From Heptranchias perlo (Eukaryota): a stretch of DNA of 64,000 nt. Below are positions 23,204 through 47,132 of the stretch, piece after piece. The DNA lies in the NCBI RefSeq assembly GCF_035084215.1, contig NC_090344.1:39680001-39744000 (forward strand), given 5' to 3'. Every line of letters starts with the position of its first letter. The stretch's first letter is position 1. The position numbers and the translations under genes were made by a program. The notes beneath the pieces are model-generated. The model had not been told where the DNA came from. It saw nothing but the letters and a program-made list of their open reading frames with translations, and searched no databases.

Positions 23204-23404
23204 TCAAATTCTTTGTTTCAACTTCAGGGAGCTGTCCGGACACAGCAGTTGCTTTAGAAACCCATTGTCTGGGTCGATGCCCTGATGGTCCTTCACTGTC
23301 CTTATGGCTTCCACTAATGTCATGTTGCTGTTGGATCATCAGGTGGCCCAGAACCATGGTCGCTGACCTGCTTATTCCAACTGCGCAGTGCACCAGGAGT
23401 TTTG
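23204..23404 (-). pseudogene. DUSP26: DUSP26-like last coding exon with PTP loop, frameshifted
   Basis: Acceptor ccttccgttcacag|CA AAA CTC CTG GTG CAC TGC GCA GTT GGA ATA AGC AGG TCA gives KLLVHCAVGISRS (HCX5R). One extra base lies near 23324-23335. The shifted frame gives NMTLVEAIRTVKDHQGIDPDNGFLKQLLCPDSSLKLKQRI*, with TGA at 23206-23204. Confidence 0.92.
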
Positions 23405-23521
23405 CTGTGAACGGAAGGTGTTAACTGGTGTTAGTCTGTACAAAACATTGTAATGACACAGCTTGCAGAGTGTTACAATGCACTGAGGGGATGAGTTGGG
23501 CCACCTGGACCTCATGATGTA

Positions 23522-23805
23522 TTTTTTTTTATTTGTTCATGGGATGTGGGCGTCGCTGGCGAGGCCAGCATTTATTGCCCATCCCTAATTGTCCTTCAGA
23601 AGGTGGTGGTGAGCCGCCTTCTTGAACCGCTGCAGACCGTGTGGTGATGGTTCTCCCACAGTGCTGTTAGGTAGAGAGTTCCAGGATTTTGACCCAGCGA
23701 CGATGAAAGAACGGCGATATATTTCCAAGTCGGGATGGTGTGTGACTTGGAGGGGAACGTGCAGGTGGTGTTGTTCCCATGTGCCTGCTGCCCTTGTCCT
23801 TATTA
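23522..23805 (-). mobile_element. Non-LTR retrotransposon 3' end with poly(A) tail
   Basis: ORF 23585..23824 RRSFIVAGSKSWNSLPNSTVGEPSPHGLQRFKKAAHHHLLKDN*, followed by a 3'UTR and A-tail. Confidence 0.85.
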
Positions 23806-24466
23806 GCCATATCCTCTCCATCACAAAGACCGTCCTACTTCCAGCTCCGTGACATCACCCATCTCTGTCCTTGCCTCAGCCCATCTGCTGTTGAAACCCT
23901 CATTCATGCTTTTGTCACGATCAGACTCGACAATTTTAATACTCTCCTGTCAGGCCTTCCATCCTCCATCCATTCCAAAACTCTGCTCCTTGTATTCTAT
24001 CCCGCATCATGTCCTGCTCACCCATCACTGCTGTCCTTCCTGACCTACATTGGCTCCTGATCCCCATGCACCTTCATTTTAAAATTCTCATTCTTGTGTT
24101 TAAATCCCTTGATGGCCTTTCCCCTCCATATCTCTGTAACTTCCAACGGCCCTACAACTTCCGCCGGCCTTCTCCCCCCGCCACGCAGAACTTTGAGTTT
24201 TTCCGATTTTGGCCTCTTGTGCATCCCTCCCTTCCTTGGCCCCACTCTTGGCAGCTGTGACTTCAATCGTCAATGCCCCACCCTCTGGAATTCCTTCCCT
24301 AAATCCCTCCACCTGCCCTCCTTTAAGACCTTCCTTTGACCAAGCTTGTGCTCACCCCTCCCAATATCTCCTTTGGCACGACATCCGTTTTTGACTGATT
24401 AAGCCTCTGTGAAGCACCTTGGGATGTTAGTTATGTTAAAGACACAATATAAATGCAAGTTTTTGT
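23806..24466 (+). mobile_element. L2 LINE 3' region
   Basis: Peptides ETLIHAFVTIRLDNFNTLLSGLP and PDLHWLLIPMHLHFKILILVFKSLDGLSPPYL. Tail caatataaatgcaagtttttgtt. Confidence 0.85.
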
Positions 24467-25496
24467 TACACTATCTTGGAACAGACTCCAAAGTTATTCT
24501 GTGTAATACACTCAAATCCAGGTATTATTTATTAGGCTCCTTAGAGTTCTGTTATTGCTTTCTTTTCCCCAGCAAGGTATCATTGTCTATCACGGCAAAA
24601 GGTGGGCAGCTCTCCTGGTTGAATTGGGAGGTTTTATTGAATGGTGTGATTTGAACAGTAGTGACAGCCGCCTTTATTTCAGTGCACGGTCCAAGGGAAA
24701 GTCGTGTGCACGAGTGTGAAAATGCGTAAACTCTTTCCCACTCTCTCCTAAAGGTGCTGCCTCATTCTAGAATATGATGGTGAGCCTAAACGGTGAGTGC
24801 TCAGAAGCTGTTCAGTCATGAGGACATCCCAGCTGAGCCTGATCAGATTTAGGTGTATTTAAGTTTAGGCCGGTGAGACCATAGGGAGCTAGCATGACTT
24901 GGGACTGGACCCTTAATTCTCCCATAAGAAGGCAGATACACATCCACAAGACATGGAGGCAGACCACTGTTCTGAAAAAGAAACTACTTTTTTGTGGTTG
25001 CTGCCAGTTGACCAGGTAAATGGCAAATGGGTCCTAGAATCCATTGTGTGTGTTTGCAGAGGACTTTTTGTCCTTAAAGGGACAAGGATTTCAAAATCCA
25101 TACCTTTCCAAAGTAGACCAAATTCTGATTTTAAAAGAATAAACCAGGTGGACTGAGTGGTCGAGTGGGTTGCAAAATGACGCAGTCCTCTAGGACCTCG
25201 TCTAGTCTGAAGGGGTGAAAGTTCTGTCTGTCTCTTGGCTGCAATGAGTCCCAAACAGCACAGCAAAAAAAAGCTGCTCCCAGTTTGGGGCTAAATGTTG
25301 CAATTTCATTCAAAGAGGGAAATGGAAAAATTCGATACTGGTGTCATTGGGGTGGCCTTCGGAGGTTGGGTCTGAGTCACACATTAGAGTGGCAAGAGAT
25401 TTATTCCATGTCCAACTGTGCTGTAACTTCTTGATGCTGGCATTGGGTGCCTGGAATTGGAAAATATTCTAATCCCCAGCTTAACTTGATAGGAAA

Positions 25497-25840
25497 GAGA
25501 AAAAAAATGCATTTATATAGTGCTTTATCACATCCTCGCGACACCTCAAAGTGGTTCATTATGAATGAAGTCCAGTCACTCTTTGCTGTGTTGGCAAACA
25601 TGAGAGTCAGTTTGTGTTCAACAAGATCACAGGGTCATTCATTTACAAGCAGCAGAATGACCAATTAACAGTATTTGGTGGTGTTGGTTGAGGGATGAAT
25701 GTTGGCCAGGACATTAGGAAAAATTCCCTGCTTTTCTTTGAACACTGCAATGGGATCTTTTACATGCTCGAGTCCTGGAGTGCAACTCAAACCCCCTGAT
25801 TCAAATCGGACAGTGCTACCAACTTAGCCAAGCTGACACT
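25497..25840 (-). mobile_element. Deu-type SINE (family A)
   Basis: gcatttatatagtgcttt (tail), ttggttgagggatgaatgttggccaggaca (core), agtgctaccaacttagccaagctgacac (head). Confidence 0.7.
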
Positions 25841-28194
25841 AAAACTAATGAGTGCAGAATTTATGAATAATCCAAATTGTTCAAATCGAATTTTCAGGTA
25901 TGTTATATACACTTATTTATAACTAATGGCACTGCCATGGTATTGTTCATGGCTAGTCTGGGGTCTGGAGTAAGGATGCGATGTTTAGCTGTTAACCTGT
26001 CCCTTGCTCAAATACTTCCTGGAGGGAAGTTGTCCAAATAGGCGACTCAGGTGATTGTAGCAGCTTGTAAGCTCCTGAGGTCAATCGGGGGAATTGTAAC
26101 TACTTGTAAATTTCAGGCTGCGGGTCAGAGGAGCCCATCATGAAATGAATGGCTTTTTTAAAAAAAAGATTGTTTTTGCATCTATGAAACCTGGGGTGTG
26201 ATGGAATTGCATGAGATGCAAGACTTTTTATATATGTGTAATAAGATAGATTTTCAGACCATTCCACTCCAGTATCTCTGTGTTGTGCGTGCCACTCCAG
26301 GCTCCTCTGCCTAATATTTGCTCTATTTCGAAAGCTGAGCTGATAGAATTGTGTTGAGTTGTATACTGAAACGTTTGTATTGAGGAACTACAGAGAGTCA
26401 CATTGCCAGCCCCAGCACTATCTGACATCCGATTATCATTTCAGATTCCTTTCTCTGAACACCATAGTTCAGTACCAGCTATAAATCAGTCTGGCTGGTG
26501 AATTGTACAGAGGGACATTGTGAAACCAAGTGCCCATTGTTGAGGAGACCTTTGTTGGTTATTAACTGTATTGAAGATAGGAGAGTTAAAGAATAATTAA
26601 AGATTCACCCAAGATTTTTCAAGGTTGTTAATGTTAACGGCAAGAGTTGCTGCCTCCCTGTCAGATGGCATTTTTACTTTGCACTCAACACGGCATTCGA
26701 TTTCAGGAGAGTGACCCTCAGGCAGAGCTCTCCCACCTTTTCTCTCGGAGTGCGGAGCTGGTCTCTGTCTGGACACTGGGCTCTGCTGTTGAGACAGAGA
26801 CCCAGAAATCGAACGCTCAGGACTGCCTGCTTGCGTTCAATTGACTTGAAGATGGCAGGATCACTGACCCATGTTTTCCTGGCTCTGCGATGCTGTCTTT
26901 TCCTGGAACCTGGGCCTGTTAACTCTACGGAGTGCTTCCGATAGAGGGAGAGCCGCACCTCTGTAATCAGCTGCACTCCTCCAGTGTATAAGCAGGCACG
27001 AGCTTCTGGGCAGAGTTGAACTGGCTAGACAGCAGTGTTAAGCAATCGTTTCCCATTTCCCTCATCTCCTCTCCTGAGGGAAAAGTTTTGCAGATTTATA
27101 GCCTTTAAAAATGTATAAATATTTAATATAACAGGGGAGTCCTCTGCATTAAAGATGTACATCCTAACTGCTCTTTCTGAACTTACTGTTGCCACCCAGC
27201 TGTAATTCAGTTTTAACCAGGGGGACAGAGGATGATCTGTGCACTGTGTATTTGCTGTTGTTAAAAATAAGGATTGTTGATGACCTTGTGAGATCAATCC
27301 TCGAGTAAGCCCTATCTTCAACAACAACTTGCATTTACATAGCGCCCTTAACCTAGTAATTTGTTGCCATTGGGAAGTTGCGAGTGCAGCTTTCTAACAC
27401 CGTTTATCAACCGGTGTCGTGATGGTACCGTTGACACAACATAAACATCAGCGCATTTCTGCACCCGAATTAAACAGTCAGTTTTACGGTGACTAAGTCA
27501 AATTCTGTTTGTATGATTGGATTCTGGGATTTTTGCTGCTTTTGAGATCACATTCCGTTATTCCGTCTATAAACCCTAAATCACCGGCTTTGAAAATGGT
27601 CCTTCTGGAGTCCTGAACCACCCCAAGCACTGACGAACCTTCTCCCCAACGCCCCCCCACCCCCGCCACCACCCACAGATTGGTTATGATATTACCACCA
27701 TGATTGCCTGAAGCCTTTCCTTTATGTTTGGAGCACCAAGTGTTAATAACAGGCTCCTCTTCAGAGTATCCTGCCCAATTAAGTGTCCTGCTTCACTTTG
27801 TCACCTTGCCTGTTGTTTGTGCGACTTGAAGGAGCAGGAGGCAGCATTGCCACCTACTGGACACGTTGACACATTACACCCGAGAAACTATCAATGGGCA
27901 GCTGCACTGATTCCAAATGCCTGACTCAAATCCTGCAAAATAAAATCCCTGTCACAAAAACTGTCAACCGCTCCCCTTTTTTTGCGTGATTCAAGAATGT
28001 TTTCACCGTGACAGTATTAAAGTAACTTTAGTCGGTGAGTACAATCTAGTGACATGTGAGTGAGTTGTACAAGGGCATCTGTTGAATGGGGTTTATATTC
28101 TCACAGTGCCATTCTCTCTAAACTGCGTGAAGCGGTAATCCATTAAAGTGAGATTCTGCTCATTTTGAATGAATAGAGCTAAGCCAGTTAAAAA

Positions 28195-28585
28195 GTAAAT
28201 TCAAGAAACGGCTCTCCACGCAAAGGGAGGATGTGAAATGCACTGCCCCAGAAGAGCAGCGATGCAGAATTAGTTGGGGTGTTTAAAAGTGGGGATAGGT
28301 GCTCTGAGGAGCAAGGATATGAGGGAAGAGTGAGATTAGAATTAAAGAGGTGAACGGTTGCCATGGATAACGCAATGGAGGAGGAGACTCAACGGGCTGA
28401 GTGGCCGACTCCTGTTCCTACATCAATTAAGAACATAAGAACTAGGAGCAGCAGTAGGCCATACGCCATGCTCCGCCATTCAATAAGATCATGGCTGATC
28501 TTCGTTCTCAACTCCACGTTCCTGTCTGATCCCCATATCCCTTGATTCCCCTAGAGTCCAAAAATCTATCCATCTCAGCCTTCCA
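28195..28585. mobile_element. Two CR1 3' fragments tail to tail (old + copy about 28195-28420; - copy about 28428-28585)
   Basis: gggctgagtggccgactcctgttcct, then taagaacataaga...ctccgccattcaataagatcatggctgatc. Confidence 0.65.
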
Positions 28586-29127
28586 TATTAAGGACATCAT
28601 TCTGCATTAGTTGGATGAAGTATCCATGTTGTTTGTCAGTCGTGACACCTGCTGCTGTACATGGCAACGTGTCAGATTATTTAAGAGGGACACAAATATT
28701 TATAACCTGTGAGTCATTACGATGAAGATCTTGGATTGCGACAGTGCTCCCGCTGATTATAGCATCTCAACTCCTTGATCAATAGATCAGTGAGAGTGAA
28801 AATAGAGCGATTTATTGTCATCTGAATCTTGAAACGTGATTGATTTTCTGCTGCAATCGCTTTCTCCTGTCAGCGGCATCTCCATCACTGCTTTCCTACT
28901 GCAGGTCCTGTGCAGGTATATTTAACTTAAAAAGGAAGGAAATTCTGCAGGGAAGTATTTTCTGTTCCAAGTATTCTGCCGATTTCTTTTGGTTTATAGA
29001 CTGCATCATCTTTGTCGCAGTTTCCACCATGAGAAAAGCACACACTTCGGTGTCCAGTATCCGCCCATTGAAATATTCCAGTCCAATATTTTATTATCTA
29101 ACCTGATTGCTTGTCTGATGATAACAT

Positions 29128-32100
29128 GGATTTATGGGCCTCCTGCTGGGGCCATGGGTTTATGGGCTGGGGCCCTGGGTTTATAGACCTCCTGCTGGGG
29201 CCCTGGGTTTATGGACCTCCTATTGGGGCCCTGGGTTTATGGGCCTCCTGTTGGGGCCATGGGTTTATGGGCTGGGGCCCTGGGTTTATAGACCTCCTGC
29301 TGGGGCCCTGGGTTTATGGGCCTCCTACTGGGGCCCTGGGTTTATGGGCCTCCTATTGGGGCCCTGGGTTTATGGGCCTCCTGTTGGGGCCCTGGGTTTA
29401 TAGGCCTCCTGCTTGGGTCCTGGGTTTATGGGCCTCCTACTGGGGCCCTGGGTTTATGGGCCTCCTACTGGGGCCCTGGGTTTATGGGCCTCCTACCCGG
29501 GGCCCTAGATTTATGGGCCTCCTGCTGGTGCTGTGGGTTTATGGGTCTCCTGCTGATGCTGTGGGTTTATGAGTCTCCTGCTGGTGCTGTGGGTTTATGA
29601 GTCCCTTGCTGGTGCTGTGGGTTTATGGGTCTTCTGCTGATGCTGTGGGTTTATGGACTGTCTGCTGATGCTGTGGGTTTATGGACTGTCTGCTGGTGCT
29701 GTGGGTTTATGGGCCTCCTGCTGGTGCTGTGGGTTTATGGGTCTCCTGCTGGTGCTGTGGGTTTATGGGTCTCCTGCTGATGCTGTGGGTTTATGGGCCT
29801 TCTGGTGCTGTGGGTTTATAGACTGCCTGCTGGTGCTGTGGGTTTATGGGCCTCCTGCTGGTGCTGTGGGTTTATAGACTGCCTGCTGGTGCTGTGGGTT
29901 TATGGGCCTCCTGCTGGTGCTGTGGGTTTATGGGCCTTCTGCTGGTGCTTTAGGTTTATGGACTGTCTGCTGGTGCTGTGGGTTTATGGGCCTCCTGCTG
30001 GTGCTGTGGGTTTATGGACTGCCTGCTGGTGCTGTGGAGTTATGGGTCTCCTGCTGGTGCTATGGGTTTATGGGCCTTCTGCTGGTGCTGTGGGTTTATG
30101 GGCCTCCTGCTGGTGCTGTGGGTCTATGGGCCTTCTGCTGGTGCTGTGGGTTTATGGGTCTCCTGCTGGTGCTGTGGGTTTATGGGCCTTCTGCTGGTGC
30201 TGTGGGTTTATGGGTCTCCTGCTAGTGCTGTGGGTTTATGGGTCTCCTGCTGGTGCTATGGGTTCATGGGTCTCCTGCTGGTGCTGTGGGTTTATGGACT
30301 GCCTGCTGGTGCTGTGGCTTTATGGGTCTCCTGCTGGTGCTGTGGGTTTATGGACCTTCTGCTGGTGCTATGGGTTTATGGACTGTCTGCTGGTGCTGTG
30401 GGTTTATGGGTCTCCTGCTGGTGCTGTGGGTTTATGGGTCTTCTGCTGGTGCTGTGGGTTTATGGACTGCCTGCCGGTGCTGTGGGATTATGGACTGCCT
30501 GCTGGTACTGTGGGTTTATGGGTCTCCTGCTGGTGCTGTGGGTTTATGGGTCTCCTGCTGGTGCTGTGGGTTTATGGGCCTCCTGCTGGTGCTGTGGGTT
30601 TATGGGCCTCCACCTGGTGCTATGGGTTTATGGGTCTCCTGCTGTTGCTGTGGATTTATGGGTCTCCTGCTGGTGCTGTGGGTTTATGGGTCTCCTGCTG
30701 CGCTGTGGGTTTATGGACTGCCTGCTGTGCTGTGGGTTTATGGACTGCCTGCTGGTGCTGTGGGATTATGGACTGCCTGCTGGTACTGTGGGTTTATGGG
30801 TCTCCTGCTGGTGCTGTGGGTTTATGGGTCTCCTGCTGGTGCTGTGGGTTTATGGGCCTCCTGCTGGTGCTGTGGGTTTATGGGCCTCCTGCTGGTGCTG
30901 TGGGTTTATGGGCCTCCTGCTGGTGCTGTGGGTTTATGGGCCTCCTCCTGGTGCTGTGGGTTTATGGACTGCCTGCTGGTGCTGTGGGTTTATGGGTCTC
31001 CTGCTGATGCTGTGGGTTTATGGGTCTCCTGCTGGTGCTGTGGGTTAATGGGCCTCCTCCTGGTGCTGTGGGTTTATGGGTCTCCTGCTGGTGCTGTGGG
31101 TTTATGGGCCTCCTGCTGGTGCTGTGGGTTTATAGACTGCCTGCTGGTGCTGTGGGTTTATGGGTCTCCTGCTGATGCTGTGGGTTTACGGGTCTCCTGC
31201 TGGTGCTGTGGGTTTATGGACTGCCTGCTGGTGCTGTGGGATTGTGGACTGCCTGCTGGTACTGTGGGTTTATGGGTCTCCTGCTGGTGCTGTGGGTTTA
31301 TGGGCCTTCTGCTGGTGCTGTGGGTTTATGGGCCTCCTGCTGGTGCTGTGGGTTTATGGGCCTCCTCCTGGTGCTGTGGGTTTATGGGTCTCCTGCTGGT
31401 GCTGTGGATTTATGGGTCTCCTGCTGGTGCTGTGGGTTTATGGGTCTCCTGCTGGTGCTGTGGCTTTATGGGCCTCCTGCTGGTGCTGTGGCTTTATGGG
31501 CCTTCTGCTGGTGCTGTGGGTTTATGGGTCTCCTGCTGGTGCTGTGGCTTTATGGGTCTCCTGCTGGTGCTGTGGGTTTATGGGTCTCCTGCTGGTGCTG
31601 TGGGTTTATGGGTCTCCTGCTGGTGCTGTGGATTTATGGGTCTCCTGCTGGTGCTGTGGGTTTATGGGCCTCCTGCTGGTGCTGTGGGTTTATGGACTGC
31701 CTGCTGGTACTGTGGGTTTATGGGTCTCCTGCTGGTGCTGTGGATTTATGGGTCTCCTGCTGGTGCTGTGGGTTTATGGGTCTCCTGCTGCGCTGTGGGT
31801 TTATGGACTGCCTGCTGTGCTGTGGGTTTATGGACTGCCTACTGGTGCTGTGGGTTTATGGGTCTCCTGCTGGTGCTGTGGGTTTATGGGTCTCCTGCTG
31901 GTGCTGTGGGTTAATGGGCCTTCTGCTGGTGCTGTGGCTTTATGGGCCTTCTGCTGGTGCTGTGGGTTTATGGGCCTCCTGCTGGTGCTGTGGGTTTATG
32001 GGCCTCCTGCTGGTGCTGTGGCTTTATGGGCCTTCTGCTGGTGCTGTGGGTTTATGGGTCTCCTGCTGGTGCTGTGGCTTTATGGGTCTCCTGCTGGTGC

Positions 32101-34580
32101 TGTGGGTTTATGGGTCTCCTGCTGGTGCTGTGGGTTTATGGGTCTCCTGCTGGTGCTGTGGATTTATGGGTCTCCTGCTGGTGCTGTGGGTTTATGGGCC
32201 TCCTGCTGGTGCTGTGGGTTTATGGACTGCCTGCTGGTACTGTGGGTTTATGGGTCTCCTGCTGTTGCTGTGGATTTATGGGTCTCCTGCTGGTGCTGTG
32301 GGTTTATGGGTCTCCTGCTGCGCTGTGGGTTTATGGACTGCCTGCTGTGCTGTGGGTTTATGGACTGCCTACTGGTGCTGTGGGATTATGGACTGCCTGC
32401 TGGTACTGTGGGTTTATGGGTCTCCTGCTGGTGCTGTGGGTTTATGGGTCTCCTGGTGCTGTGGGTTTATGGGCCTCCTGCTGGTGCTGTGGGTTTATGG
32501 GCCTCCTGCTGGTGCTGTGGGTTTATGGGCCTCCTGCTGGTGCTGTGGGTTTATGGGCCTCCTCCTGGTGCTGTGGGTTTATGGACTGCCTGCTGGTGCT
32601 GTGGGTTTATGGGTCTCCTGCTGATGCTGTGGGTTTATGGGTCTCCTGCTGGTGCTGTGGGTTAATGGGCCTCCTCCTGGTGCTGTGGGTTTATGGGTCT
32701 CCTGCTGGTGCTGTGGGTTTATGGGCCTCCTGCTGGTGCTGTGGGTTTATAGACTGCCTGCTGGTGCTGTGGGTTTATGGGTCTCCTGCTGATGCTGTGG
32801 GTTTACGGGTCTCCTGCTGGTGCTGTGGGTTTATGGACTGCCTGCTGGTGCTGTGGGATTGTGGACTGCCTGCTGGTACTGTGGGTTTATGGGTCTCCTG
32901 CTGGTGCTGTGGGTTTATGGGCCTTCTGCTGGTGCTGTGGGTTTATGGGCCTCCTGCTGGTGCTGTGGGTTTATGGGCCTCCTCCTGGTGCTGTGGGTTT
33001 ATGGGTCTCCTGCTGGTGCTGTGGATTTATGGGTCTCCTGCTGGTGCTGTGGGTTTATGGGTCTCCTGCTGGTGCTGTGGCTTTATGGGCCTCCTGCTGG
33101 TGCTGTGGCTTTATGGGCCTTCTGCTGGTGCTGTGGGTTTATGGGTCTCCTGCTGGTGCTGTGGCTTTATGGGTCTCCTGCTGGTGCTGTGGGTTTATGG
33201 GTCTCCTGCTGGTGCTGTGGGTTTATGGGTCTCCTGCTGGTGCTGTGGATTTATGGGTCTCCTGCTGGTGCTGTGGGTTTATGGGCCTCCTGCTGGTGCT
33301 GTGGGTTTATGGACTGCCTGCTGGTACTGTGGGTTTATGGGTCTCCTGCTGGTGCTGTGGATTTATGGGTCTCCTGCTGGTGCTGTGGGTTTATGGGTCT
33401 CCTGCTGCGCTGTGGGTTTATGGACTGCCTGCTGTGCTGTGGGTTTATGGACTGCCTACTGGTGCTGTGGGTTTATGGGTCTCCTGCTGGTGCTGTGGGT
33501 TTATGGGTCTCCTGCTGGTGCTGTGGGTTTATGGGTCTCCTGCTGGTGCTGTGGGTTAATGGGCCTTCTGCTGGTGCTGTGGCTTTATGGGCCTTCTGCT
33601 GGTGCTGTGGGTTTATGGGCCTCCTGCTGGTGCTGTGGGTTTATGGGCCTCCTGCTGGTGCTGTGGCTTTATGGGCCTCCTGCTGGTGCTGTGGCTTTAT
33701 GGGCCTTCTGCTGGTGCTGTGGGTTTATGGGTCTCCTGCTGGTGCTGTGGCTTTATGGGTCTCCTGCTGGTGCTGTGGGTTTATGGGTCTCCTGCTGGTG
33801 CTGTGGGTTTATGGGTCTCCTGCTGGTGCTGTGGATTTATGGGTCTCCTGCTGGTGCTGTGGGTTTATGGGCCTCCTGCTGGTGCTGTGGGTTTATGGAC
33901 TGCCTGCTGGTACTGTGGGTTTATGGGTCTCCTGCTGGTGCTGTGGATTTATGGGTCTCCTGCTGGTGCTGTGGGTTTATGGGTCTCCTGCTGCGCTGTG
34001 GGTTTATGGACTGCCTGCTGTGCTGTGGGTTTATGGACTGCCTACTGGTGCTGTGGGTTTATGGGTCTCCTGCTGGTGCTGTGGGTTTATGGGTCTCCTG
34101 CTGGTGCTGTGGGTTAATGGGCCTTCTGCTGGTGCTGTGGGTTTATGGGCCTTCTGCTGGTGCTGTTGGTTTATGGGCCTCCTGCTGGTGCTGTGGGTTT
34201 ATGGGCCTCCTGCTGGTGCTGTGGCTTTATGGGCCTTCTGCTGGTGCTGTGGGTTTATGGGTCTCCTGCTGGTGCTGTGGCTTTATGGGTCTCCTGCTGG
34301 TGCTGTGGGTTTATGGGTCTCCTGCTGGTGCTGTGGGTTTATGGGTCTCCTGCTGGTGCTGTGGATTTATGGGTCTCCTGCTGGTTCTGTGGGTTTATGG
34401 GCCTTCTGCTGGTGCTGTGGGTTTATGGGCCTCCTGCTGGTGCTGTGGGTTTATGGGCCTCCTGCTGGTGCTGTGGATTTATGGGTCTCCTGCTGGTGCT
34501 GTGGGTTTATGGGCCTTCTGCTTGTGCTGTGGGTTTATGGGCCTCCTGCTGGTGCTTTGGTTTATGGGCCTCCTGCTGGT
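29128..34580. repeat. 28-bp minisatellite/satellite array (about 5.4 kb, roughly 190-195 units)
   Basis: Consensus CTGGTGCTGTGGGTTTATGGG(T/C)CTCCTG. Three units (84 bp) give the 28-aa period MGLLLVLWVYGSPAGAVGLWVSCWCCGF seen in all three + frames. Confidence 0.98.
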
Positions 34581-34639
34581 TTAACAGATTTGCTTGTTGT
34601 CTATTTAAAAAACTACCTGTTTTTTTCTCCCTTTACTTC

Positions 34640-34800: not shown

Positions 34801-34957
34801 TTTGACCGTGTAATACTCAAGTGAGGCCCAAAGCCGAAATTGGTTCAGGCCTCCCGACTGTGACCTGGAGCGGCCACCGTTAGCGCATCGCAGTCTTCAA
34901 GCCCGTTTTGGGCCTAAGTTGAAAGTTCCATCCCCCACCCCCCTCAATCATTTTTCA

Positions 34958-35704: not shown

Positions 35705-36040
35705 AATTTTTGGGTGACGCTGGCAAGGCCACATTTGCTGCCCATCCCTAGTTGCCACCTGAGAAGGTGGTGACAGCTTTTCTCCTTGAAGCAATTGTTT
35801 TCACATTGTACATCTAAGTGTGGGACTAGTCACACCAGATTAGGGGTGGCAGGTTCCCTTCTCAGAAGGACACTGGTCAACCAGTTGGGTTTTTATGACA
35901 AATTGGCAGCTTTCATGGTCATTTTCCCTGGTGCCAGCCACAAACTGCCAAGCTTGTTGAATTCCAATTTCGCAACTTGCCACTGTGCGATTGGAACTTA
36001 TAACCTCAGGCTTGCTGGTCCTGGACCATAACCACTGGAC
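35705..36040 (-). mobile_element. tRNA-head SINE (family C), degenerate
   Basis: Reverse complement of the 44505-44907 element. Similar copies at about 36770-37000, 56852-57247 and 10870-11025 plus 13053-13215. Confidence 0.65.
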
Positions 36041-36115
36041 TAAATGGTGCGCCTTGACCCAGAATGTGCAGTATAACATTCCTGCAAAAAAGCAGGCCCC
36101 CTTATTAGGCCATAC

Positions 36116-36330
36116 CTCCAGTGTCTCTGAGCGCCTGGTGAATAAAGTCGGCCGCAGGGTTAAAGTGGACGTTCTTGTCAACCGCGGGTGAATCGTGCAC
36201 TTCGACCCCATAGTCGGCAATATCCATCCCTCGGTAATACTCCACTCCTCCCCTCCACTTGCTGCGCGAAGCCTTCACTACGTAGGTAATCCCTAACCTC
36301 ACCAGCTCACTTTTGTCAGAGGCTATATCC
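36116..36330 (-). pseudogene. DUSP26: DUSP26-like middle exon (215 bp, frame open, both splice sites canonical)
   Basis: tgtgtttcag|G GAT ATA GCC ... ACT GGA G|gtatgg. The peptide matches DUSP26 DMANNRRELRRLGITHVLNASHSRWRG...[32 protein letters not shown] and includes the general-acid Asp (HDSP). It lies within ORF 36105..36350. Confidence 0.92.
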
Positions 36331-37184
36331 CTGAAACACAGATAATGCACATTTTAATTATAATTCCCCAAAATGGAACTTGAAGTTGAATTAACAGCTC
36401 AGAGGAGCAGTGCTGAAATATCGCACATTGATGGCTCCACCGGAGAGCAAGTTCAGCCCACGCACAGTGCTGCTTTCTAATTAATTTCTACAGCATTAAT
36501 TTATGTTAGAAGCGTGCTGTTTCATTTGTAGTTTCTTCTAACTGGTGCACTCCAGACGTTCTAAGGTGACTGTACAGCCTTTATCTTTCAGTTCACCTCA
36601 TTAATCGCCTCTGAAGTGCAATAAGGGAGGCCTCAGAACAGCCTGTGGATAATCAAACCTGGATTGGGGCTTCAGTCAGTCTTCCCTTCACACCGTTCAT
36701 TGTGTGAAGGTTTTGGTTTTCCAAATGAGGTGTCCAATTGTCAGCTCACTAATTTTCTTTTTATTTGTTCTTGGGATGTGTGCAAAACTGCTTACCAAAG
36801 CAGCATTGCTTACCCATCCCTGGTTTCCCTAAGGGCACTTAAGAGTCAGCCAGTTGTGTTTTTACAACAAGCTTTCGTGGTCATTTTTTTTCCTGTTGCA
36901 AATTTCCAGGTTCATTGAATTTAATTTCACAATTTGCCATGGTGGAGTTTGAACTTGTGACCTGTGCGTTGCTGGTCCAGTGCCATAACCCCTACACTAG
37001 CTTTGGTCTTGGTAATCTGTTTTGCAGATGACTTAACAGTAAGAGGGATTTGCTCAGGGATTGCTACTGCAGTGTGTTAGAGCCACGTTGCGCGTCGTCA
37101 TTGGAGGGTAGAACGCAGCTCGGTGCCTGAGATGTCTCATTCCCCAAGTGCTTCATCTTAACCATGTCATCATCAGGCAGTGAT

Positions 37185-37445
37185 GAACATAAGGAAATGA
37201 CGGGCAGGAAAAGACCAGCTGGTCCATCAAGCCTGCCCCACATTCATGATGGCTGGAACATCATGATTAGACATTTCCTACCTCCTCACCCCTGCCCCCT
37301 GCCTCCCCCCCCCACCCCCCAGCCCCAGCCCCAGCCATGTAATCCCCTGGGAGAGGCAAAAAAAACCTAGAAAAACCCAGGGCCAATAAGGGAAAAGGTA
37401 CACTGGAAAATTCATCTCCGACCCCCTCAAGCGACCGAAACCGGT
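37185..37445 (-). mobile_element. CR1-type 3'UTR fragment of a distinct subfamily
   Basis: gaacataaggaaat...caggaaaagaccagctggtccatcaagcctgcccca...ggaaaattcatctccgacccc. Confidence 0.5.
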
Positions 37446-38744
37446 TCGGTGCATCATGTTATCTGTAAAACCACATATATATGTCCAAATGGTACCACAA
37501 AAAGCTAATGGGGAGGTCCTTCTTTGCCCGGTTTTCATGAAGCTGCCGAATTGTTGCTGGAGTACAGTTCTATGGGCAGTGACTGCCCTCGGCAAGCTCA
37601 GCCAAGTTGTGAGTCTAGACAGTGAGTATTGGCAGGCTGTTATACCTTGGGAAAACACCATGCTCAAGCCTGATCCTGACTCCACACATGTACTTTCCAG
37701 TAGTAGGAGCCCTGGCTGATTGTCCCTTAAACCTAAGCCAGGTGTGCTGAGGCCAATTGTAGTGGCCCCGACTCGTGCCTTGGCTGAGATCAGTTAGCTC
37801 ATCACAAGCCAGGGAGCGAACCTGGGCCCTTCCTCATCTGTATCCCTCAGTAACATTGAGGGTAGAGCATTTACTCATTGACCCATTTCAGCACAAATTA
37901 AATAGTAGTTGTATTTTTTACTCGTAAATATTCTGAAACAATGAGACTCCTGCTTTTAGGATGACTCGGTGGTTTCATATAATTCGGATTGCTTGCCAAA
38001 CTGCCCCAGTGAAATGTATACCAGCGCAGGAAAGAGTGTGCACAGTGTTGCGTGAAATACATCAATACAGCATGCTAACCATTTGTGGACTGTGAAGTCA
38101 GTTTCTTTTGTCTTGACAGAATGCTTGTACAGTAACTCCCCAATTTAAAATTGTGAAAGACAGCTTCCCCCCCCACAGCTCAATTGTGCTAAACACACTA
38201 TCCAGTGAGAAACTGAGCTGCACAGCACATGAAGACCCCACTTTGTAATGAGTTATCTGGTCTCCTCTGGGACGGTGGCTGGGTTGCTACAATTGACCTC
38301 AGCAATAGGCTTAGGAAGGAGGGGAAAAAATAATCAGGCAGGGTTCCCGATCCTGATCGCTGCCCATCGACTTCTGCTGCAAAGGGTGTGTGTAGGCGTC
38401 AGCAGAGGATAGGAATGGACTTGGCTGCAGTGCCTGCCCCTGTCCAAACAGCCGGTGGAGACACAGTCAAGGCTCACCGATGAAAGATACTGGAGGACAG
38501 CCAGCAGCACTGCAGCTGTACTCCAGTGCCTCCACAGAAGTGGAGAAGAAAATTGAAGGAAGGCAGAACTGGTCTAAAGAATCATAGAAATCAAAAATTC
38601 CAGCCTTCAACAATTTTCTCTCCTCCCATCCTGCAGGCATTGATTCCATGCTGGGATATGGTCCATGGACAATCCTGCTCCCCATCCGTGATCGTACTGT
38701 AATGTAAAAGGGGGCATCAGTTTCCTAATTCTTTGTCCAGTCGT

Positions 38745-39312
38745 AGAAACATAGAAACGTAGAAACATGGAAAATAGGAGCAAGAGTAGGCCATTTGGGC
38801 CTGCTCCGCCATTCAAAATGATCATGGCTGATCGTCTAACTCAGTACCCTGTTCCCGCTTTTTCCCCATATCCCTTGATCCCTTTTGCATGAAGAAATAT
38901 ATCAATCTCCTTCTTGAATACATCTAATGGCTTGGCCTCCACTGCCTTCTGTGGTAGACAATTCCACAGGTTCACCATCCTCTGAGTGAAGAAATTTCTC
39001 CTCATCTCGGTTCTAAATGGCATACCCCGTATCCTGAGACTGTGACCCCTGGTTCTGGACTCCCCAGCCATCGGGAATATCCTCCCTGCATCTAGTCTGT
39101 CTAGTCCTGTTAGAATTTTATATGTTTCGATGAGATCACCTCTCATTCTTCTAAACTCTAGTGAATATCGGCCTAGTCGACCCAATCTCTCCTCATACGT
39201 CAGTCCTGCCATCCCAGGAATCAGTCTGGTAAACCTTCGTTGCACTCCCTCCATGGCAAGGACATCCTTCCTCAGATAAGGAGACCAAAACTGAACACAA
39301 TACTCCAGATGT
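38745..39312 (-). mobile_element. CR1 3' fragment with an uninterrupted ORF2 C-terminus
   Basis: ORF 38841..39347 HLEYCVQFWSPYLRKD...GIKGYGEKAGTGY*. The tail reads tagaaacatagaaac on the + strand. Confidence 0.93.
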
Positions 39313-39394
39313 GAAAGCCACGTCCAAATGTTTAGATGAAATGTCAAATGTAAGTTGCCTTTGATGGAGGCTATGACGAAATAAGAACAAAGGA

Positions 39395-39785
39395 AGAAAG
39401 TTAAGAGGAGATCTTACTGAGGTGTTCAAAATTATGAAGGGTTTTGATGAGGTATATTGGAAAAAAACTCTTCCCATTGGTCAGTGAGTCTGTCACTAAA
39501 GAACATAAATTTAAGATCCTCACCAAAAGGATGAAGGGAGAGGTCAGGAGAATTTTTTTTTTACACAGAGGGTTGTCAGGACATGAATGACCTACCAGAA
39601 ACAGTGGTGCAAGCAGAATCCATAACAGCTTTTAAATAGGAAGTGGATAAATATTTGAAAAAGAAAAATTTAAAAGGGAATGGGGAAAGGGCAGGGGAAC
39701 GGGACTAAGTGGTGAGCTCTTCCAGAAAGCCAGCATGGCCGTGATGGGCCGAATGGCTTCCTTCCGTGCTGCAAAATTCTATGAG
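39395..39785 (+). mobile_element. Older CR1 3' fragment
   Basis: aagttaagaggagatcttactgaggtgttcaaaattatgaaggg...gatgggccgaatggcttccttccgtgctg. Confidence 0.8.
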
Positions 39786-40610
39786 TCTGGGATGATAATG
39801 CAACCTCTCTATAGCAGGCCTACGACAGAGCAGCTCTCCCTCAGTACTGCACTGAAGTGCCAACCTGCATCATGTGCTCAAGTCCCTCATGTGAGGCTCG
39901 AACCCACAATCTTCTGACTCAGACGTGGGAGTGCTACCCACTGAGCCAAGGCTGATACCTGATAGCTCAGAAACTGCCATGAATTTAAGCCATGGCATAT
40001 ATAAGGGGCTACAAACGTTGAAGACACAGTTTATTTTCTTGGGGTGGGGGCAGGCGGTTGGGGAGAGGCAGTCTAGCAATTAATTTGGTGCATTTTACAT
40101 CATTTTCCGGCAAGCATGGAGAGTAATTTGTTCTTTAATCTATTGCTTAATTTTTATTGAAAACTACCCCCTGCCATTTAGGAATAAATTATTTTTTGAT
40201 TATATTTTAAGGCTACTTTCTCCCAGTTGCAGCCGATAATTTATTGCTGACAAAAAAAAAGTTTAATTAATTTTGTGTTTTTTGTAAAAAGTGCCTCATA
40301 GCAAATAAAGGATTTGAACCCAGTTGATTAATGATGGGATCATTTCAGTCAGGGCTGTCGGCAACAAATTTAGAATTATGCACACTCCTTCCAAATGTTG
40401 CATTCTGGTTAATTTTAAATAGTCTTTCGACTTCATAATTGATTATTACAAGAACATTTGTGACATTTAGGATTTCAACAAACCCAACAATCATTTCTCC
40501 AAAAGCAACACCAACCCACACTCTTTCACATTCACAGAGGCACTGTCCTCCTCCATCTCCCACCCAATTCACAGACTCTCTTCTTGTCACCTCAAGTCAC
40601 AATGCCACTC

Positions 40611-42272
40611 TCATAGAATCGTTACAGCACAGAAGGAGGCCATTCGGCCCATCGAGCCCGTGCCAGCTTTCTGCAAGAGCAATCCAGCTTGTCCCACTCC
40701 CCCGCCCTTTTCCCTTAGCCCTGCAAATTTTTTGCCTTCAAGTGCTTATACACTTCCCTTTTGAAAGCCGTGATTGAATCTGCCTCCGCCAGTCTTTCAG
40801 GCAGTGCATTCCAGACCATAACCACTCGCTGCGTGAAAAAGTTTTTCCTCATGTCACCTTTGGTTCTTTTGCCAGTCACCTTAAATCTGTGTTGTCTGGT
40901 TCTTGACCCTTCCGCCAATGGGAACAGTTTCTCTCTATCTACTCTGTCTATACCCCACATGATTTTGAGCACATCCATCAAATCTCCTCTCAACCTTCTC
41001 TGCCCTAAAGAGAACAACCCCAGATTCTCCAGTCTATCCATGTAACTGAAGTCCCTCATCCCTGGAACCATTCTAGTAAATCTTTTCTGCACCCTCTTTA
41101 ATTGGACACAATACTCCAGTTGTGGCTGAACCAGTGTTTTAGAAAGGTTCATCATAACTTCCTTGCTTTTGTACTCTTTGCCTCTATTTATAAAGCCCAG
41201 GATCCTGTATGCTTTTTTAACCACTTTCTCAACCTGCCCTGCCACCTTCAAAGACCTGTGCACATATACCCCCAGATCTCTCTTTTCCTGCACCCTCTTT
41301 AGAATTGTACCCTTCAGTTTATATTGCCTCTCCTCGTTCTTCCTACTAAAAATTATCACCTCGCACGTCTCTGCGTTAAATTTTATCTGCCATGTGTCTG
41401 CCCATTCCACCAGCCTGTTTATGTCCTCTTGAAGTCTATCACTATCCTCCTCACTGTTTACTAGACTTCCAAGTTTTGTGTCATCTGCAAATTTTGAAAT
41501 TGTGCCCTGTCCACCCAAGTCCAAGTCATTAATATATACCAAGAAAAGCAGTGGTCCTGGTACCGATCCCTTGGGAACACCACTGTATACCTTCTTCCAG
41601 TCCGATAAACAACCCTTCACCGCTACTCTCTATTTCCTGTCACTTTGCCAATTTCGTATCCATGCTGCCACTACCCCTTTTATTCCATTGGCTACAACTT
41701 TGCTGACAAGCCTATTATGTAGCACTTTATCAAACGCCTTTTGGAAGTCCATATTCACAACATCAACCGCATTGCCCTCATCAACCCTCTCTGTTACCTC
41801 ATCAAAAAACTAGATCAAGTTAGTTGAACATGATTTGCCTTTAATAAATCTGTGCTGGCTTTCCTTAATTATTCCACACTTGTCCAAGTGACTGTTAATT
41901 TTGTCCCGGATTAACGATTCTAAAAGCTTCCCCACCACCGAGGTTAAACTGACTGGCCTATAGTTGCTGGACTTTTTTGAACAAGGGTGTAACATTTGTA
42001 ATTCTCCAGTCCTCTGGCACCACCCCCATATCTAAGGAGGATTGGAAGATTATGGCCAGCACCTCTGCAATTTCCATCCTTACTTCCCTCAGCAACCAAG
42101 GATGCATCCCATCTGGACCTGGTGACTTGTCTACTTGAAGTACAGCCAGCCTTTCTAGTACCTCCTCTTCATCAATTTTTAGCCCATCCAGTATCTCAAC
42201 TACCTCCTCTTTTACTGTGACTTTGGCAGTATCTTTTTCCTTGGTAAAGACAGATGCAAAGTACTCATTTGG
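40611..42272 (-). mobile_element. 5'-truncated CR1 LINE (RT domain)
   Basis: ORFs 41958..42401 (NEYFASVFTKE, KSPGPDGMHP), 41810..41995 (NYRPVSLTSVVGK) and 40715..41620 (GVPKGSVPGPLLFLVYINDL, KFADDTKL, WNALP). Confidence 0.95.
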
Positions 42273-42554
42273 TACCCCAGCCGTACCAGTACCTTTTCCT
42301 TTAACTTCCTCCCCAAGTTCACAAAGACCATCTTCCCCCTCCAATATCCACCGCCGCACCACCCCCCCCACCCAGTTTATAGTTGCACTGTACCCCCTCA
42401 CACAGGGGCACTGTCTCCCTCTCCACCCTGGATCACAGAGGTTACATAAAATTAATAGAAATTACAACAACGAAATGGGCCATTATTTTGGGAAGTGCAC
42501 CTTCCCAGAGGGCGGGAAATTTGATTCCAGTGTCTTCTGGCTATTCCACATACG

Positions 42555-42961
42555 TAAACAATCTTACAACACCAGGTTATAGTCCAACAATTTTATTTGA
42601 AAATCACAAGCTTTCGGAGGCTTCCTCCTTCGTCAGGTGAATGTCAGGAAATCCTTGAACGTTTCGCATTTATAGTCAGAGAACAATACCTGGTGATTAC
42701 AGATAATCTTTCCAACTGCCCGTTGTCAAGGCAATCAAAGTGTTCAGACAGAGAGGTGTTACCTACAGGACCACCGAATATACAAACGGCCAGAACACAA
42801 AACAGAGAGAGAGAGGGAGAAACATCCAAAAGGAAGAGAAAGACAGACCTGTTGAATTAAAGACAGATAACTTTTATTCGCTGGTGGGGTTACGTGTAGC
42901 GTGACATGAACCCAAGATCCCGGTTGAGGCCGTCCTCATGGGTGCGGAACTTGGCTATCAA
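42555..42961 (-). mobile_element. Penelope-like element 3' end (ORF C-terminus plus terminal repeat with hammerhead core)
   Basis: The minus strand begins TTG ATA GCC AAG TTC CGC ACC CAT GAG GAC GGC CTC AAC CGG GAT CTT GGG TTC (LIAKFRTHEDGLNRDLGFMSRYT*), like the end of a Penelope GIY-YIG domain. 13-bp TSD TATTCCACATACG at 42542-42554 and 42962-42974. Confidence 0.85.
42600..42640 (-). ncRNA. Minimal hammerhead ribozyme motif (Penelope-associated)
   Basis: Minus strand CACCTGACGA-A-GGAGG-AAG-CCTCC-GAAA-GCTT: a CUGANGA box, a 5-bp stem II and a GAAA box. Confidence 0.65.
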
Positions 42962-43335
42962 TATTCCACATACGATCACTGGTATTCACAGATGGGGAGA
43001 AAGAGGCTGGGAGAAAGAGAGAGGGGGTTGGGGGACTGGAGATCTAAGAGAGGGGAATGTGTCTCTGGGAGTCTAAAAGGGCAATGCGAATCTGAGCGGG
43101 GAACAGGAGCCTGAGAGAGGTGAGCAGGACTCTGGGAGCCTATGAATGATGACCAGCACTGGAAATTCCAGATTAAAAGGAAAGAAAGACTAAGGAACGT
43201 CGATGAGTGAAAATACCATCCACGAAATGACCTTCCTACTTTCAACCCCCAAAACCGTGATCTTAATTTCCTATACACTATAAAGTGTAATTCTGTTGGC
43301 TGGTTGTGGAATTCATGACTTGAGCCAGTCTTTTC

Positions 43336-43340
<5 letters not shown>

Positions 43341-43366
<26 letters not shown>

Positions 43367-43413
43367 GGCCCCCACGCTCACACACCCCTCCCCCCAACAC
43401 ACACACACACACA
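43341..43413. repeat. Interrupted (AC)n microsatellite
   Basis: Two (ac)n runs separated by a short C-rich spacer. Confidence 0.9.
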
Positions 43414-44504
43414 TCCCTGACATTGAAGAATTACAATGCAAGTCAAGTGGAAATTGTGCCTCTTTCCTGCAATTAATATTTAATCCCTGGTTTGAGTGGC
43501 AGTTTGTAAAGTGCATGTTTTAAGACCATGTCAGGTGATATTATTGCTGACAGAATCTGTTGTTGAGCTATATGCGCCCATTACACTATTAGTCTAGGTA
43601 CTTGGTCTGCTAAATCTTAAGTGCTTTTATACTAAGTAATGAATTTGGTAAACTTCACATCTCATTCGAGTTAACACCATCTTGCAAATGTTACCCTTTA
43701 GTTACTGAAATAGAATGCATGAATTTCTAATCTTTTCTAAAAATTAAATCCTGTTGCTTTTCACTTGGGATTATAAATGGATTTCCTCGGAATCTGCCAG
43801 CTGTTGGTGAATGTGCTTATCCCTGGCTTGTGCCACCTAGTCTCAAGTCACGGTGTGCTGGGAGAATTTCCCATGGCGAGGACAGGCTGAGTGAGCTAGC
43901 TTGGGTTGAATTTCACCTTCGGTTGCTGGAACTCTTGCTCAAGGCTACATTATTTGATAGGTAAAAATGATTGAATTGAACAAAGTGCTGGTAATGGGTT
44001 TCAAGCATCATTAAAAATAGTAATTTTCAAATTCCTGTTCGAAAGAGTATTTATTTTTATTAAAAGTTCTGAGTTGTGTTTGGAACGTAAGCACTTAAAA
44101 CATTGATTTGCTGTCCAGTGTATTTGGTGGACGTGGGTGAGGAAAGGATCAGGTTTGACTTTGATGCTCCTCTATGGACAAATAACCTACTGATGCTCGC
44201 TGTCGAGGCCCACATAGATGAGAGATATTGGACAGCTGCCTCGGGCTATCGAACTGCTTCCCAGCAACATTTAGAAAGAAAGAAAGAGAAAAGCTTGCAT
44301 TTATGTAGCACCTTTCACGACCTCAGGACATCCCAAAGCACCTTGCAGCCAATGAAGTGCAATTCGGGCCATCAGGAGAGGAGGGGAGAAAATGGGGAAT
44401 TGAAACAAAATGTTGCAGCATGGAGTGTAAGGGTTTGTGTTTGAAGAACAGTTAATCAAGACCTGACTTTCTGTGCATAATGCATAACAGTCTCAAACTG
44501 CATC

Positions 44505-44907
44505 GGGTACGGTAGTGTAGTAGTTATGTTACTGGACTAATAATTCAGAGAACGTGAGTTCAAATCCTACCATGGTAGTTTGAGAATTTGAAGCCGGTTT
44601 GAAAAAAATCTGTGAATAAAAAAACTAGTTTTAGTAAATAAAAACGACCATGAAGCTGTTGGATTGTCAGAAAAACCCAACTGGTTCACTCATGTCCTTT
44701 AGGGAAGGAAACCTGCCGTCCTTACCCGGTCTGGCCTATATGTGACTCCAGTCCCACACCAACGTGGTTGACTCTTGACTGCCCTCTGAAGTGGTCTAGC
44801 AAGCCACTCAGTTGTATCAAGAAGAAAGCCCACCATCCTCTTCGGGCATCTAGGGATGGACAATAAATGCCAGTGACGCCCACATCCCGAGAATGAATTT
44901 AAAAAAA
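44505..44907 (+). mobile_element. Near full-length tRNA-derived SINE (family C)
   Basis: Head ggtagtgtagtagtt (A-box-like) and gagttcaaatcc (B-box-like). The 3' end cccaccatcctcttcgggcatctagggatggacaataaatgccagtgacgcccacatcccgagaatgaatttaaaaaaa matches the LINE tails at 18290, 23522 and 52635. Confidence 0.8.
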
Positions 44908-45506
44908 TGTGTTTCATCCTATGAATGGTTGTTCTCCACTGCAATAAAAACAGCCAAATACAGGCCCACCGCAGTAGGCAGGCCAAGTGGTAGACAATAA
45001 AGGGACACTGAATGCTGGTTAAACTAACAGCGTCTCAAAAGGAATCTCAGAAGTTGCTGTTTGATCTTGCAACTCGTGGCCGTACTGCATCACAAATTGA
45101 ACAATATTCAGCTGATACAAAAAGAAGAAATTGCTGGAAATACACAGCAGATCCTCCAATATCAGAAAAGGCAGGTTAATGTTCTGGGTCAGAACCATTG
45201 AGTCAGGACTGTGCCAATGTGAATTGGAGGGAGAGGAACGAAGGGTGCCAACTTGAACTGGGGGCAGAGGGAGAAGAGTATCTGCTTCAATGGTGGATTG
45301 GAGGTGGAGTGCCTCTGTGAAGTGGGATGGGGAGAGTATCTCTTCATTAAGACCACAGTCAGAGTACTGTGTCAGAACAACACTCGAACCTCAACCTCTT
45401 TCAGGTGCTGATTAACCTGAAGGTACAATTTCCACAGGGGCTGTCCTGCACGAATGGCCATTTACGCTGTTTCTCCAGGGTTTCTGCCGTTCTTCTGCCG
45501 AAGTTA

Positions 45507-46073
45507 CCTGGTTAGACCGTACCTGGAGTACTGTGAGCAGTTCTGGGCACCGCACCTTCGGAAGGACATATTGGCCTTGGAGGGAGTGCAGCGTAGGTTG
45601 ACTAGAATGATACCCGTACTTCAAGGATTAAGTTACGAGGAGAGATTACACAAATTGGGGTTGTATTCTCTGGAGTTTAGAAGGTTGAGGGGTGATCTGA
45701 TCGAAGTTTATAAGATATTAAGGGGAATGGATAGGGTGGATAGAGAGAAAATATTTCCGCTGGTTGGGGATTCTAGGAGTAGAGGGCACAGTCTAAAAAT
45801 TAGAGCCAGACCTTTCAGGAGTGAGATTAGAAAACATTTCTACACACAAAGGGTGGTAGAAGTTTGGAACTCTCTTCCGCAAACGGCAATTGATACTAGC
45901 TCAATTGCTAAATTTAAATGTGAGATAGATAGCTTTTTGGCAACCAAAGGTATTAAGGGATATGGGCCAAAGGCAGGTATATGGAGCTAGATCACAGATC
46001 AGCCATGATCTTATCAAATGGCGGAGCAGGCACGAGGGGCTGAATGGCCTACTCCTGTTCCTATGTTCCTATG
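45507..46073 (+). mobile_element. CR1 3' fragment with an uninterrupted ORF2 C-terminus
   Basis: LVRPYLEYCEQFWAPHLRKD...WNSLPQ...GIKGYGPKAGIWS*. Tail cctatgttcctatgt. Confidence 0.93.
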
Positions 46074-46946
46074 TTACGGCGGGAGATTGGGAGAACCCCC
46101 ATGGAAATTCCAGGTGCTGGTGTATGTCTCCTGACTTGATGGTGTTTCTTCTTAGCTCTTGTTAGTTTCGAAATTAAGTACCTTGGAATTTGTAGGGAGG
46201 CTTTGTTTTAAGTCCGTTTCCCCCACCTGGTGACGGACAGGCCTCGCCATTTAGTTAATGCATAATGATCTTAATTGAATTCATTCCGTAAGTTGTGTTC
46301 ATGAATATCTAGTTTCCTCTCAAAATTGCCCTCATTGATGACTCAGCTTCTGACCCTTTTCTCTTTCTCCCGGTCCTCCAGATCTCTGTCCTCTCCCCCA
46401 TTCTGCCCCTTCTTTATGCCAATGACCTCCTCTACTCATCATCCAACCCTATCTATTAAAAGTGGGGAAAATAGTGAGCAGCGCCTACCCGAACTTCTGA
46501 TAGATGCTGCTCCTTGCTCCTTGCAACACAAACTTGTAAAATTACCCCTCTAATCTGCCACTCTGACTCATACTTTCCCAGGATTTCAAAACTGCGGAAC
46601 TCATTAGCCCTCTAGTCTTTCCCTCCTCCGACAATCTTCTGCCTCGTGCCACCTCATCTCTACTTATTGATCACGCCTTCCATGGTTTTTGGAAATGGGT
46701 TGTTAAAATTCAACTAAAAAGACAAGACATTCCTACAGCTTGTTGATGAAGGTCTGTTTTTCATTACATTGGGAGAATAACAGACAAACAGGCAGGGACA
46801 GCTCAGCAGGAGACCCTTCAGGCTCTTACTAAATATAAACTCTGGTGGCATCCAGCACTAATCTCTTTTCCACTCTCTTCCCAAGACTGGTGTCAAGTTG
46901 AAAATGAACTGCACAAACCCACATTAAATACCCAATGGGTACTTAG

Positions 46947-47132
46947 TGATCTCCCAGGTACAGCCGTACAGGCTAAACTTCGTCTGCGTGATTGCAGGCT
47001 GTTTTACCAGTGAAAAGTAAACTTTCCAACTCGTGCACACTGAGTACAAGCGACGTTTCTTTGAATTCCATGTGACTTCTGGATTTGGACTACCTACCGC
47101 CATATGCCATTTCTTCAGCTGATCACATGAAC
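46947..47132 (-). pseudogene. DUSP26: DUSP26-like first coding exon (disabled)
   Basis: Acceptor ttttgacag| precedes 47132 and ATG is at 47110-47108. The frame reads MAYGGR*SKSRSHMEFKETSLVLSVHELESLLFTGKTACNHADEV*PVRLYLGD. TAG occurs at 47092-47090 and at 46975-46973 (the W of HADEVWP). The exon ends CA|CTAAGT where GTAAGT is expected. Confidence 0.88.

Follow-up and report, generated by a model that had tools for sequence, protein, structure and literature searches.

Does the shark Heptranchias perlo carry the remains of a DUSP26 gene, and if so, are these remains all that the species has of this phosphatase or only a spare copy that fell into disrepair? The question is raised by a stretch of 64,000 nucleotides of contig NC_090344.1 (positions 39,680,001 to 39,744,000; hereafter the window, in which positions are counted from its first letter). 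An earlier note on the window had described a decayed DUSP26-type gene and had left unitary loss and decayed duplicate side by side. We found that the locus is very probably an intron-containing, broken DUSP26 that constitutes a unitary pseudogene of this shark, with no intact copy elsewhere in the assembly. The attribution of the DNA to a chondrichthyan, made in the same note, also held.

Structure of the DUSP26 locus

Reading the window in six frames, we found three DUSP26-type coding exons, all on the minus strand and in the place given by the earlier note, which together spell an essentially full DUSP26-type protein. The first (46947-47132) comprises a 22-nt leader, an ATG at 47110-47108 and 164 coding nt with the motif GKTACNHADEV. 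Position 47132, where the gene had been said to begin, is a true exon boundary, the acceptor reading ...TTTTTGACAG with its last base at 47133, and is not the start codon. Six codons 5' of the start, an in-frame ATG is directly followed by TGA (47128-47123), which may be a remnant or chance. The second exon (36116-36330) is open, has an intact AG and GT, and carries the catalytic Asp in its HDSP motif. The third (23204-23404) has an intact AG and an intact HCX5R motif with the active-site Cys and Arg, while AYLM has decayed to GHLM and the terminal TGA (23206-23204) lies in a shifted frame. Thus the residues described as the DUSP26 catalytic triad, Asp, Cys and Arg with HCX5R (PMC7828806), are kept as D101, C133 and R139 of the read-through translation. 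The motifs had been quoted in their intact forms (HDSPAFD); the window itself reads HDSPAVD and HADEV*P.

Intron 1 (36331-46946, minus strand; 10.6 kb) contains retroelement-like fragments, and intron 2 (23405-36115, minus strand; 12.7 kb) contains a 5.5-kb tandem array (29127-34580) of about 196 copies of a 28-bp unit with 90% matches, from which long, spurious Cys/Trp/Gly-rich open reading frames (ORFs) arise. Four of the five splice sites are canonical. When we compared exon read-through ORFs of intact genes, the coding intron positions proved to be those of intact DUSP26: at the junction of exons 1 and 2, 12 stored proteins stop at GDQ and 16 begin at R|DIA, and the 3' end of exon 2 coincides with the end of an ostrich read-through model and of exon ORFs. 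The read-through ORFs of intact DUSP26 genes thus share this junction, which makes the introns ancestral and excludes a retrocopy, as the earlier note had argued from the retained introns.

Four null lesions disable the gene

The four null lesions claimed for the locus are all present. A premature TAG at codon 7 (47090-47092, minus strand) is followed by a second at codon 46 (46973-46975, minus strand), which replaces the conserved Trp of DEVWP. The splice donor of exon 1 (46945-46946, minus strand) has CT in place of GT, reading CTAAGT instead of GTAAGT at 46946, behind the GDQ codon that precedes the phase-2 intron; unspliced read-through meets a TAA after two codons. A +1 frameshift in exon 3 (23325-23334, minus strand; one surplus base, the exact base being ambiguous) puts the last ~40 residues out of frame, and the coding lengths accordingly sum to 164+215+201 = 580 nt, or 3n+1. 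Alignments against all intact DUSP26 proteins also place an additional in-frame residue after the second stop (approximately 46964-46969, minus strand). A functional protein is not predicted from this locus, because translation would end at codon 7, exons 1 and 2 could not splice normally, and the last helices would be out of frame.

We checked the lesions in contigs of DNA runs. Exon 1, and with it both stops and the donor change, is covered by contigs of runs X1, X2 and X3 with no differences within the exon; the only variant in these contigs is intronic, at 46730. The exon 3 region (23190-23546) is spanned by contigs of X2 and X4 with no differences and no gaps, and an X1 contig covers 23190-23339. 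Seven runs are listed, all from one sample (S1) that is possibly the assembly's own source, and contigs can drop alleles, which might favor an error of the assembly or a null allele that is recent and polymorphic. Such an origin is vanishingly improbable: every lesion is reproduced in independent runs, and neither base errors nor a young allele can account for four null lesions together with change at 21% of near-invariant sites (see below). The run contigs exclude an assembly error and leave room for individual variation; a young allele is implausible because the decay is deep. Two runs guessed to be RNA (X5 and X6) yielded nothing on exons 1 and 3, which has no bearing on expression either way.

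The locus groups with DUSP26

For each of the four open pieces of the locus, the best match in the PDB is human DUSP26 (E 1e-20, 1.5e-8, 1.2e-6 and 1.7e-7). Exon 2 matches DUSP26 with E 1.1e-20 against 1.4e-12 for DUSP13, and exon 1, the piece with E 1.5e-8, returned 92 matches as a query, nearly all of them named DUSP26. Judged by these scores, the similarity to DUSP26 is far above chance. The read-through protein is 63% identical to the DUSP26 of Latimeria (coelacanth) and of lungfish, and 58-63% identical to bony-vertebrate DUSP26 in spite of its decay. In a 37-row tree that included DUSP13/29-, DUSP27- and DUSP3-type genes of this genome, the pseudogene is situated within DUSP26 with support of 100/99, on an end branch of 0.75 as against 0.09 for Latimeria. 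None of the six domains that we assembled from the genome's paralogues joins DUSP26; the paralogues on contigs C39, C11 and C33, which we take to be DUSP13/29, DUSP27 and DUSP3, fall outside its clade. The PDB matches and the tree thus bear out the gene name given in the earlier note, and by sequence the locus is of DUSP26 type, not of DUSP13/29/27/3 type. On C39, at 13.16-13.21 Mb, four catalytic domains of DUSP13/DUSP29 type form a tandem cluster, and their aligned exons contain no stops.

The pseudogene therefore resembles the DUSP26 (NEAP, MKP-8) of bony vertebrates, exemplified by Latimeria P0042 and human PDB 2E0T/5GTJ, in its three coding exons, its intron positions and its catalytic Asp, Cys and Arg. 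Unlike those genes, it has two stops, a lost donor, a frameshift and decayed AYLM and PNRGF motifs, and it does not adjoin RNF122.

A single detectable copy in the assembly

If an intact DUSP26 were present elsewhere, the locus would be a decayed duplicate. We searched the 3.25-Gb genome with four protein queries, and this locus ranked first with each; none of the matches to exon 2 (7), exon 1 (1), Latimeria DUSP26 (35) or Callorhinchus DUSP26 (29) marks a second DUSP26-type place. In a DNA search with exon 2, the exon was covered at this locus only among the 40 of 82 candidates scored. No further DUSP26 remnant came up in local tblastn of the sequence surrounding RNF122 (190 kb) and the window (364 kb). 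Within the candidate limits of these searches, there is a single detectable DUSP26 copy.

That an intact gene exists in the species, absent from the assembly or missed by the searches, is very unlikely. It would be favored by the fact that genome searches score only the best candidates, and by the broken link to RNF122, which implies rearrangement nearby. Against it, neither the four protein queries nor the DNA query gave a second copy although far more distant paralogues were recovered by the same searches, unplaced contigs were included (there were matches on C299 and C352), no remnant lies beside RNF122, and no DUSP26 named for Heptranchias occurs among the matches listed, though proteins of the species are in the collection. 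Of the two alternatives in the earlier note, the searches of the shark's own genome thus support the unitary loss and not the duplicate.

Decay and age of the loss

To gauge the decay, we compiled 89 bony-vertebrate DUSP26 proteins (partial, isoform and DUSP13-like rows were left out) and took the 86 columns conserved in >=95% of them as near-invariant. The pseudogene is changed at 18 of these (21%), whereas in a leave-one-out control on the 89 proteins the median was 0 and the maximum 6.9%. Counted as nucleotides, 19 changes over 196 non-synonymous sites amount to 0.104 +/- 0.047 per site, or 0.113 per site when only the 75 sites that Callorhinchus also keeps are used. At the measured divergence ~2.2 stops would be expected, and 2 are seen. 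Near-invariant changes number 1/18 in exon 1 vs 17/68 in exons 2-3, a difference that is not significant (p 0.10). By these protein-level measures purifying selection appears to have been lost, in a pattern that fits neutral decay.

The synonymous divergence (dS) of the whale shark from the zebra shark has been given as 0.061-0.111 over ~50 million years (My) (PMC13100897), with the split described as "around or earlier" than that (10.1101/2022.10.17.512540), from which we derived a shark rate of 0.6-1.1e-9 per year. At this rate the loss dates to 94-170 My ago (range 51-247), a figure to be taken as a floor because of the "around or earlier" wording and because the rate may be lower in a shark of deep water; if selection had been relaxed before the gene died, the bias would run the opposite way. 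On one tree, Hexanchiformes split from other elasmobranchs ~278-288 My ago (10.64898/2026.02.13.705779). Because the point estimate is younger than this split, a loss within the hexanchiform line is favored and an older one is possible; the latter requires a rate of 0.2-0.5e-9. Altogether, the death of DUSP26 is likely tens to hundreds of My old. A rate of 7e-10 per generation reported for the epaulette shark (PMC10587355) went unused, as no generation time was found with it, and the accessible parts of PMC5512871, 10.1101/443036 and PMC3964593 held no usable shark rate.

Chromosomal neighborhood

On the same contig (C23), at 40.62 and 40.65 Mb on the plus strand, two immunoglobulin exons have UNC5D as their best match; they lie 0.9 Mb from the pseudogene, head to head with it and beyond some 0.7 Mb of unread sequence, and no UNC5C chain is among the matches to the UNC5 exons. 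RNF122, expected on the 3' side, is also on this contig, 3.6 Mb away and on the opposite strand. In three gene models, from a bird, a snake and a rabbit (P0007, P0052 and P0081), RNF122 is fused to DUSP26, so the adjacency of the two genes is broken here. The adjacency to RNF122 that the earlier note had proposed to check therefore fails, while UNC5D appears to hold as a neighbor. The contig carries, along with RNF122, a ZNF703-type gene, an ankyrin gene and MAK16; at 43.17-43.36 Mb RNF122 (plus strand) is followed by MAK16 (plus strand), and the ORFs 5' of RNF122 presumably belong to ITPRIPL1, SNRNP200 and SLC20A1, judged from their sequences.

On its 3' side, the neighbors of the pseudogene are a Pitx gene and AAK1, giving the order AAK1, Pitx, pseudo-DUSP26, UNC5D. 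The first coding exon of AAK1 lies at C23 39,541,442-39,541,714 (minus strand; L077), and the open Pitx-family homeobox gene at C23 39,575,164-39,576,845 (minus strand; L080/L115; PDB best match PITX2/3), ~125 kb from the pseudogene. There are four Pitx loci in this genome (on C23, C39, C1 and C14) and three PITX genes in human; the C23 gene is likely the fourth whole-genome-duplication copy, lacking in humans. The literature text that our search returned held no mention of pitx4 or pitx5. The pseudogene may, speculatively, sit inside the upstream regulatory region of this Pitx gene. A fifth UNC5-like ZU5 locus is found at C41 10,709,114-10,711,231 (plus strand; L063/L068), besides those on C1, C14, C39 and C23.

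Relationship to the chimaera gene

The chimaera Callorhinchus milii has an intact DUSP26 (P0326, XP_007907419.1) with a 191-amino-acid frame, and the loss in Heptranchias therefore postdates the chimaera split. Intact DUSP26 is also present in Latimeria, lungfish, gar and tetrapods, and in every bony-vertebrate group sampled. Like the pseudogene, the Callorhinchus gene is chondrichthyan and sits on a long branch (0.53); it is changed at 11 of the 86 near-invariant residues. The changes fall at other sites than those of the pseudogene, with one changed column in common, at which the residues differ, and the GKTAC motif is kept in the pseudogene and lost in Callorhinchus. Callorhinchus milii has been reported as the slowest-evolving vertebrate (PMC3964593), and the divergence of its DUSP26 suggests that constraint was relaxed in chimaeras as well.

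This divergence invites a different reading, in which the locus is a paralogue that arose in an older duplication and died, and the chimaera gene belongs to another lineage. Identity of the Callorhinchus protein is only 53% with the pseudogene and 61% with Latimeria, the tree leaves the base of the DUSP26 clade open, and a second, divergent DUSP26-like lineage is seen in teleosts (P0229, P0216, P0220 and similar), which is named only in the teleost Coilia and is likely a teleost duplicate. A dead paralogue is nonetheless highly improbable, given that the pseudogene keeps GKTACNHADEV and a canonical-like N-terminus, has decayed yet retains its 58-63% identity to the DUSP26 of bony vertebrates, and is located close to UNC5D on a contig with RNF122, MAK16 and a ZNF703-type gene.

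Several further points weigh against a unitary DUSP26 pseudogene, alongside the single sample behind the run contigs and the genome searches that score best candidates only in an assembly that may have gaps. A grouping of the pseudogene with Callorhinchus is absent from the tree yet not rejected by the approximately unbiased test (p 0.28). The synteny is one-sided, and we assume that UNC5D lies on the 5' side of human DUSP26. A third UNC5 exon, encoding a thrombospondin domain, has UNC5B as its best match, probably due to the shorter solved constructs of UNC5D.

Is the loss wider than one shark?

Among the best 120 of 922 matches to Latimeria DUSP26 (a cut of 284 bits), there was no named shark or ray, and none occurred among the 92 matches to exon 1. 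Of the 120 clusters 6 were opened; the four unnamed rows comprised one clustering with newt, one within teleosts and two mammal-like ones. Elasmobranchs are represented in the collection: two single-exon phosphatases of this genome match Heptranchias perlo proteins without a difference, and 16 other elasmobranch species occur in the DUSP14 cluster among the 15/22 members shown. Because the damaged pseudogene itself scores 256 bits, a conserved, intact relative should pass the cut. Against a wider loss, the Callorhinchus protein scores 262 bits, below the cut, and has no five-letter word in common with exon 1, so that both searches missed it; a divergent shark DUSP26 may likewise sit among the 802 remaining matches. 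Since the chimaera gene also fell under the cut, a wider loss is suggested and not shown.

Other sources were less telling. A word-index search with exon 2 found none among 30 candidates, because the exon is decayed. Among representatives at 50% identity searched with exon 2, the best identity was 60%, 0 of 150 were closest to the pseudogene, and 1 was from Callorhinchus; a paralogue control there also had no shark-like copies (best 81%), and this search therefore cannot show absence from elasmobranchs. The ESM Atlas gives the taxon label "Chordata" only. DUSP26 was not found in supplementary files 1-12 of Tan et al. 2021 or in the supplement of PMC10208646 (0 matches), and skate and catshark expression tables lacked both DUSP26 and the control DUSP14, which makes them uninformative.

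On balance, we place a little over half of our confidence in most elasmobranchs being without an intact DUSP26. That the gene died just once, in the stem lineage common to sharks and rays, at least 280 My ago, is a tentative and rather doubtful extension; under it, the slow-evolving sevengill would have kept a readable three-exon fossil, while other elasmobranchs lost or eroded theirs, and we are equally hesitant about this picture.

Mechanism and significance

We propose that DUSP26 came under weaker constraint in cartilaginous fishes, that one null mutation was then fixed, and that the remaining lesions would have accumulated neutrally afterwards; a single genome does not reveal the order in which the lesions arose. 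Speculatively, a rearrangement separating DUSP26 from RNF122 may have brought about the death. Candidates to cover DUSP26 substrates would be the DUSP13/DUSP29 cluster and DUSP3, which have no stops in their aligned exons here, and DUSP3 and DUSP13/29 are described as overlapping with DUSP26 in sequence and in some tissues (PMC7828806).

No report of a DUSP26 loss, in sharks or any other lineage, turned up in the portions of the literature accessible to us, and the unitary pseudogene is real and apparently unreported. Among vertebrates, GULO and UOX in primates are unitary, unprocessed pseudogenes. Losses of aqp8 and aqp7 have been described in cartilaginous fishes (PMC13109646), and the present case resembles all of these: a gene died in place at a single locus, its introns kept and its outgroup orthologue intact. 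Tan et al. 2021 placed DUSP26, DUSP13 and DUPD1 in one orthogroup, and family-level surveys are therefore blind to a loss of DUSP26.

DUSP26 dephosphorylates TrkA and FGFR1, and its morpholino knock-down in zebrafish causes small eyes and a defective retina and cranial motor neurons (PMC5507855). That a lineage lives without it shows that DUSP26 can be dispensed with or compensated for. A loss limited to this lineage would be just another ordinary gene loss. Should other sharks or rays have the remnant with the same lesions, these would bear on the question whether Hexanchiformes are the sister of the remaining elasmobranchs (10.64898/2026.02.13.705779). Were the gene lost in the elasmobranch stem, lesions found in common would make a rare genomic marker for the root of elasmobranchs, which is disputed, and an entire subclass of vertebrates would represent a natural knockout of a phosphatase with a retina and motor-neuron phenotype in zebrafish.

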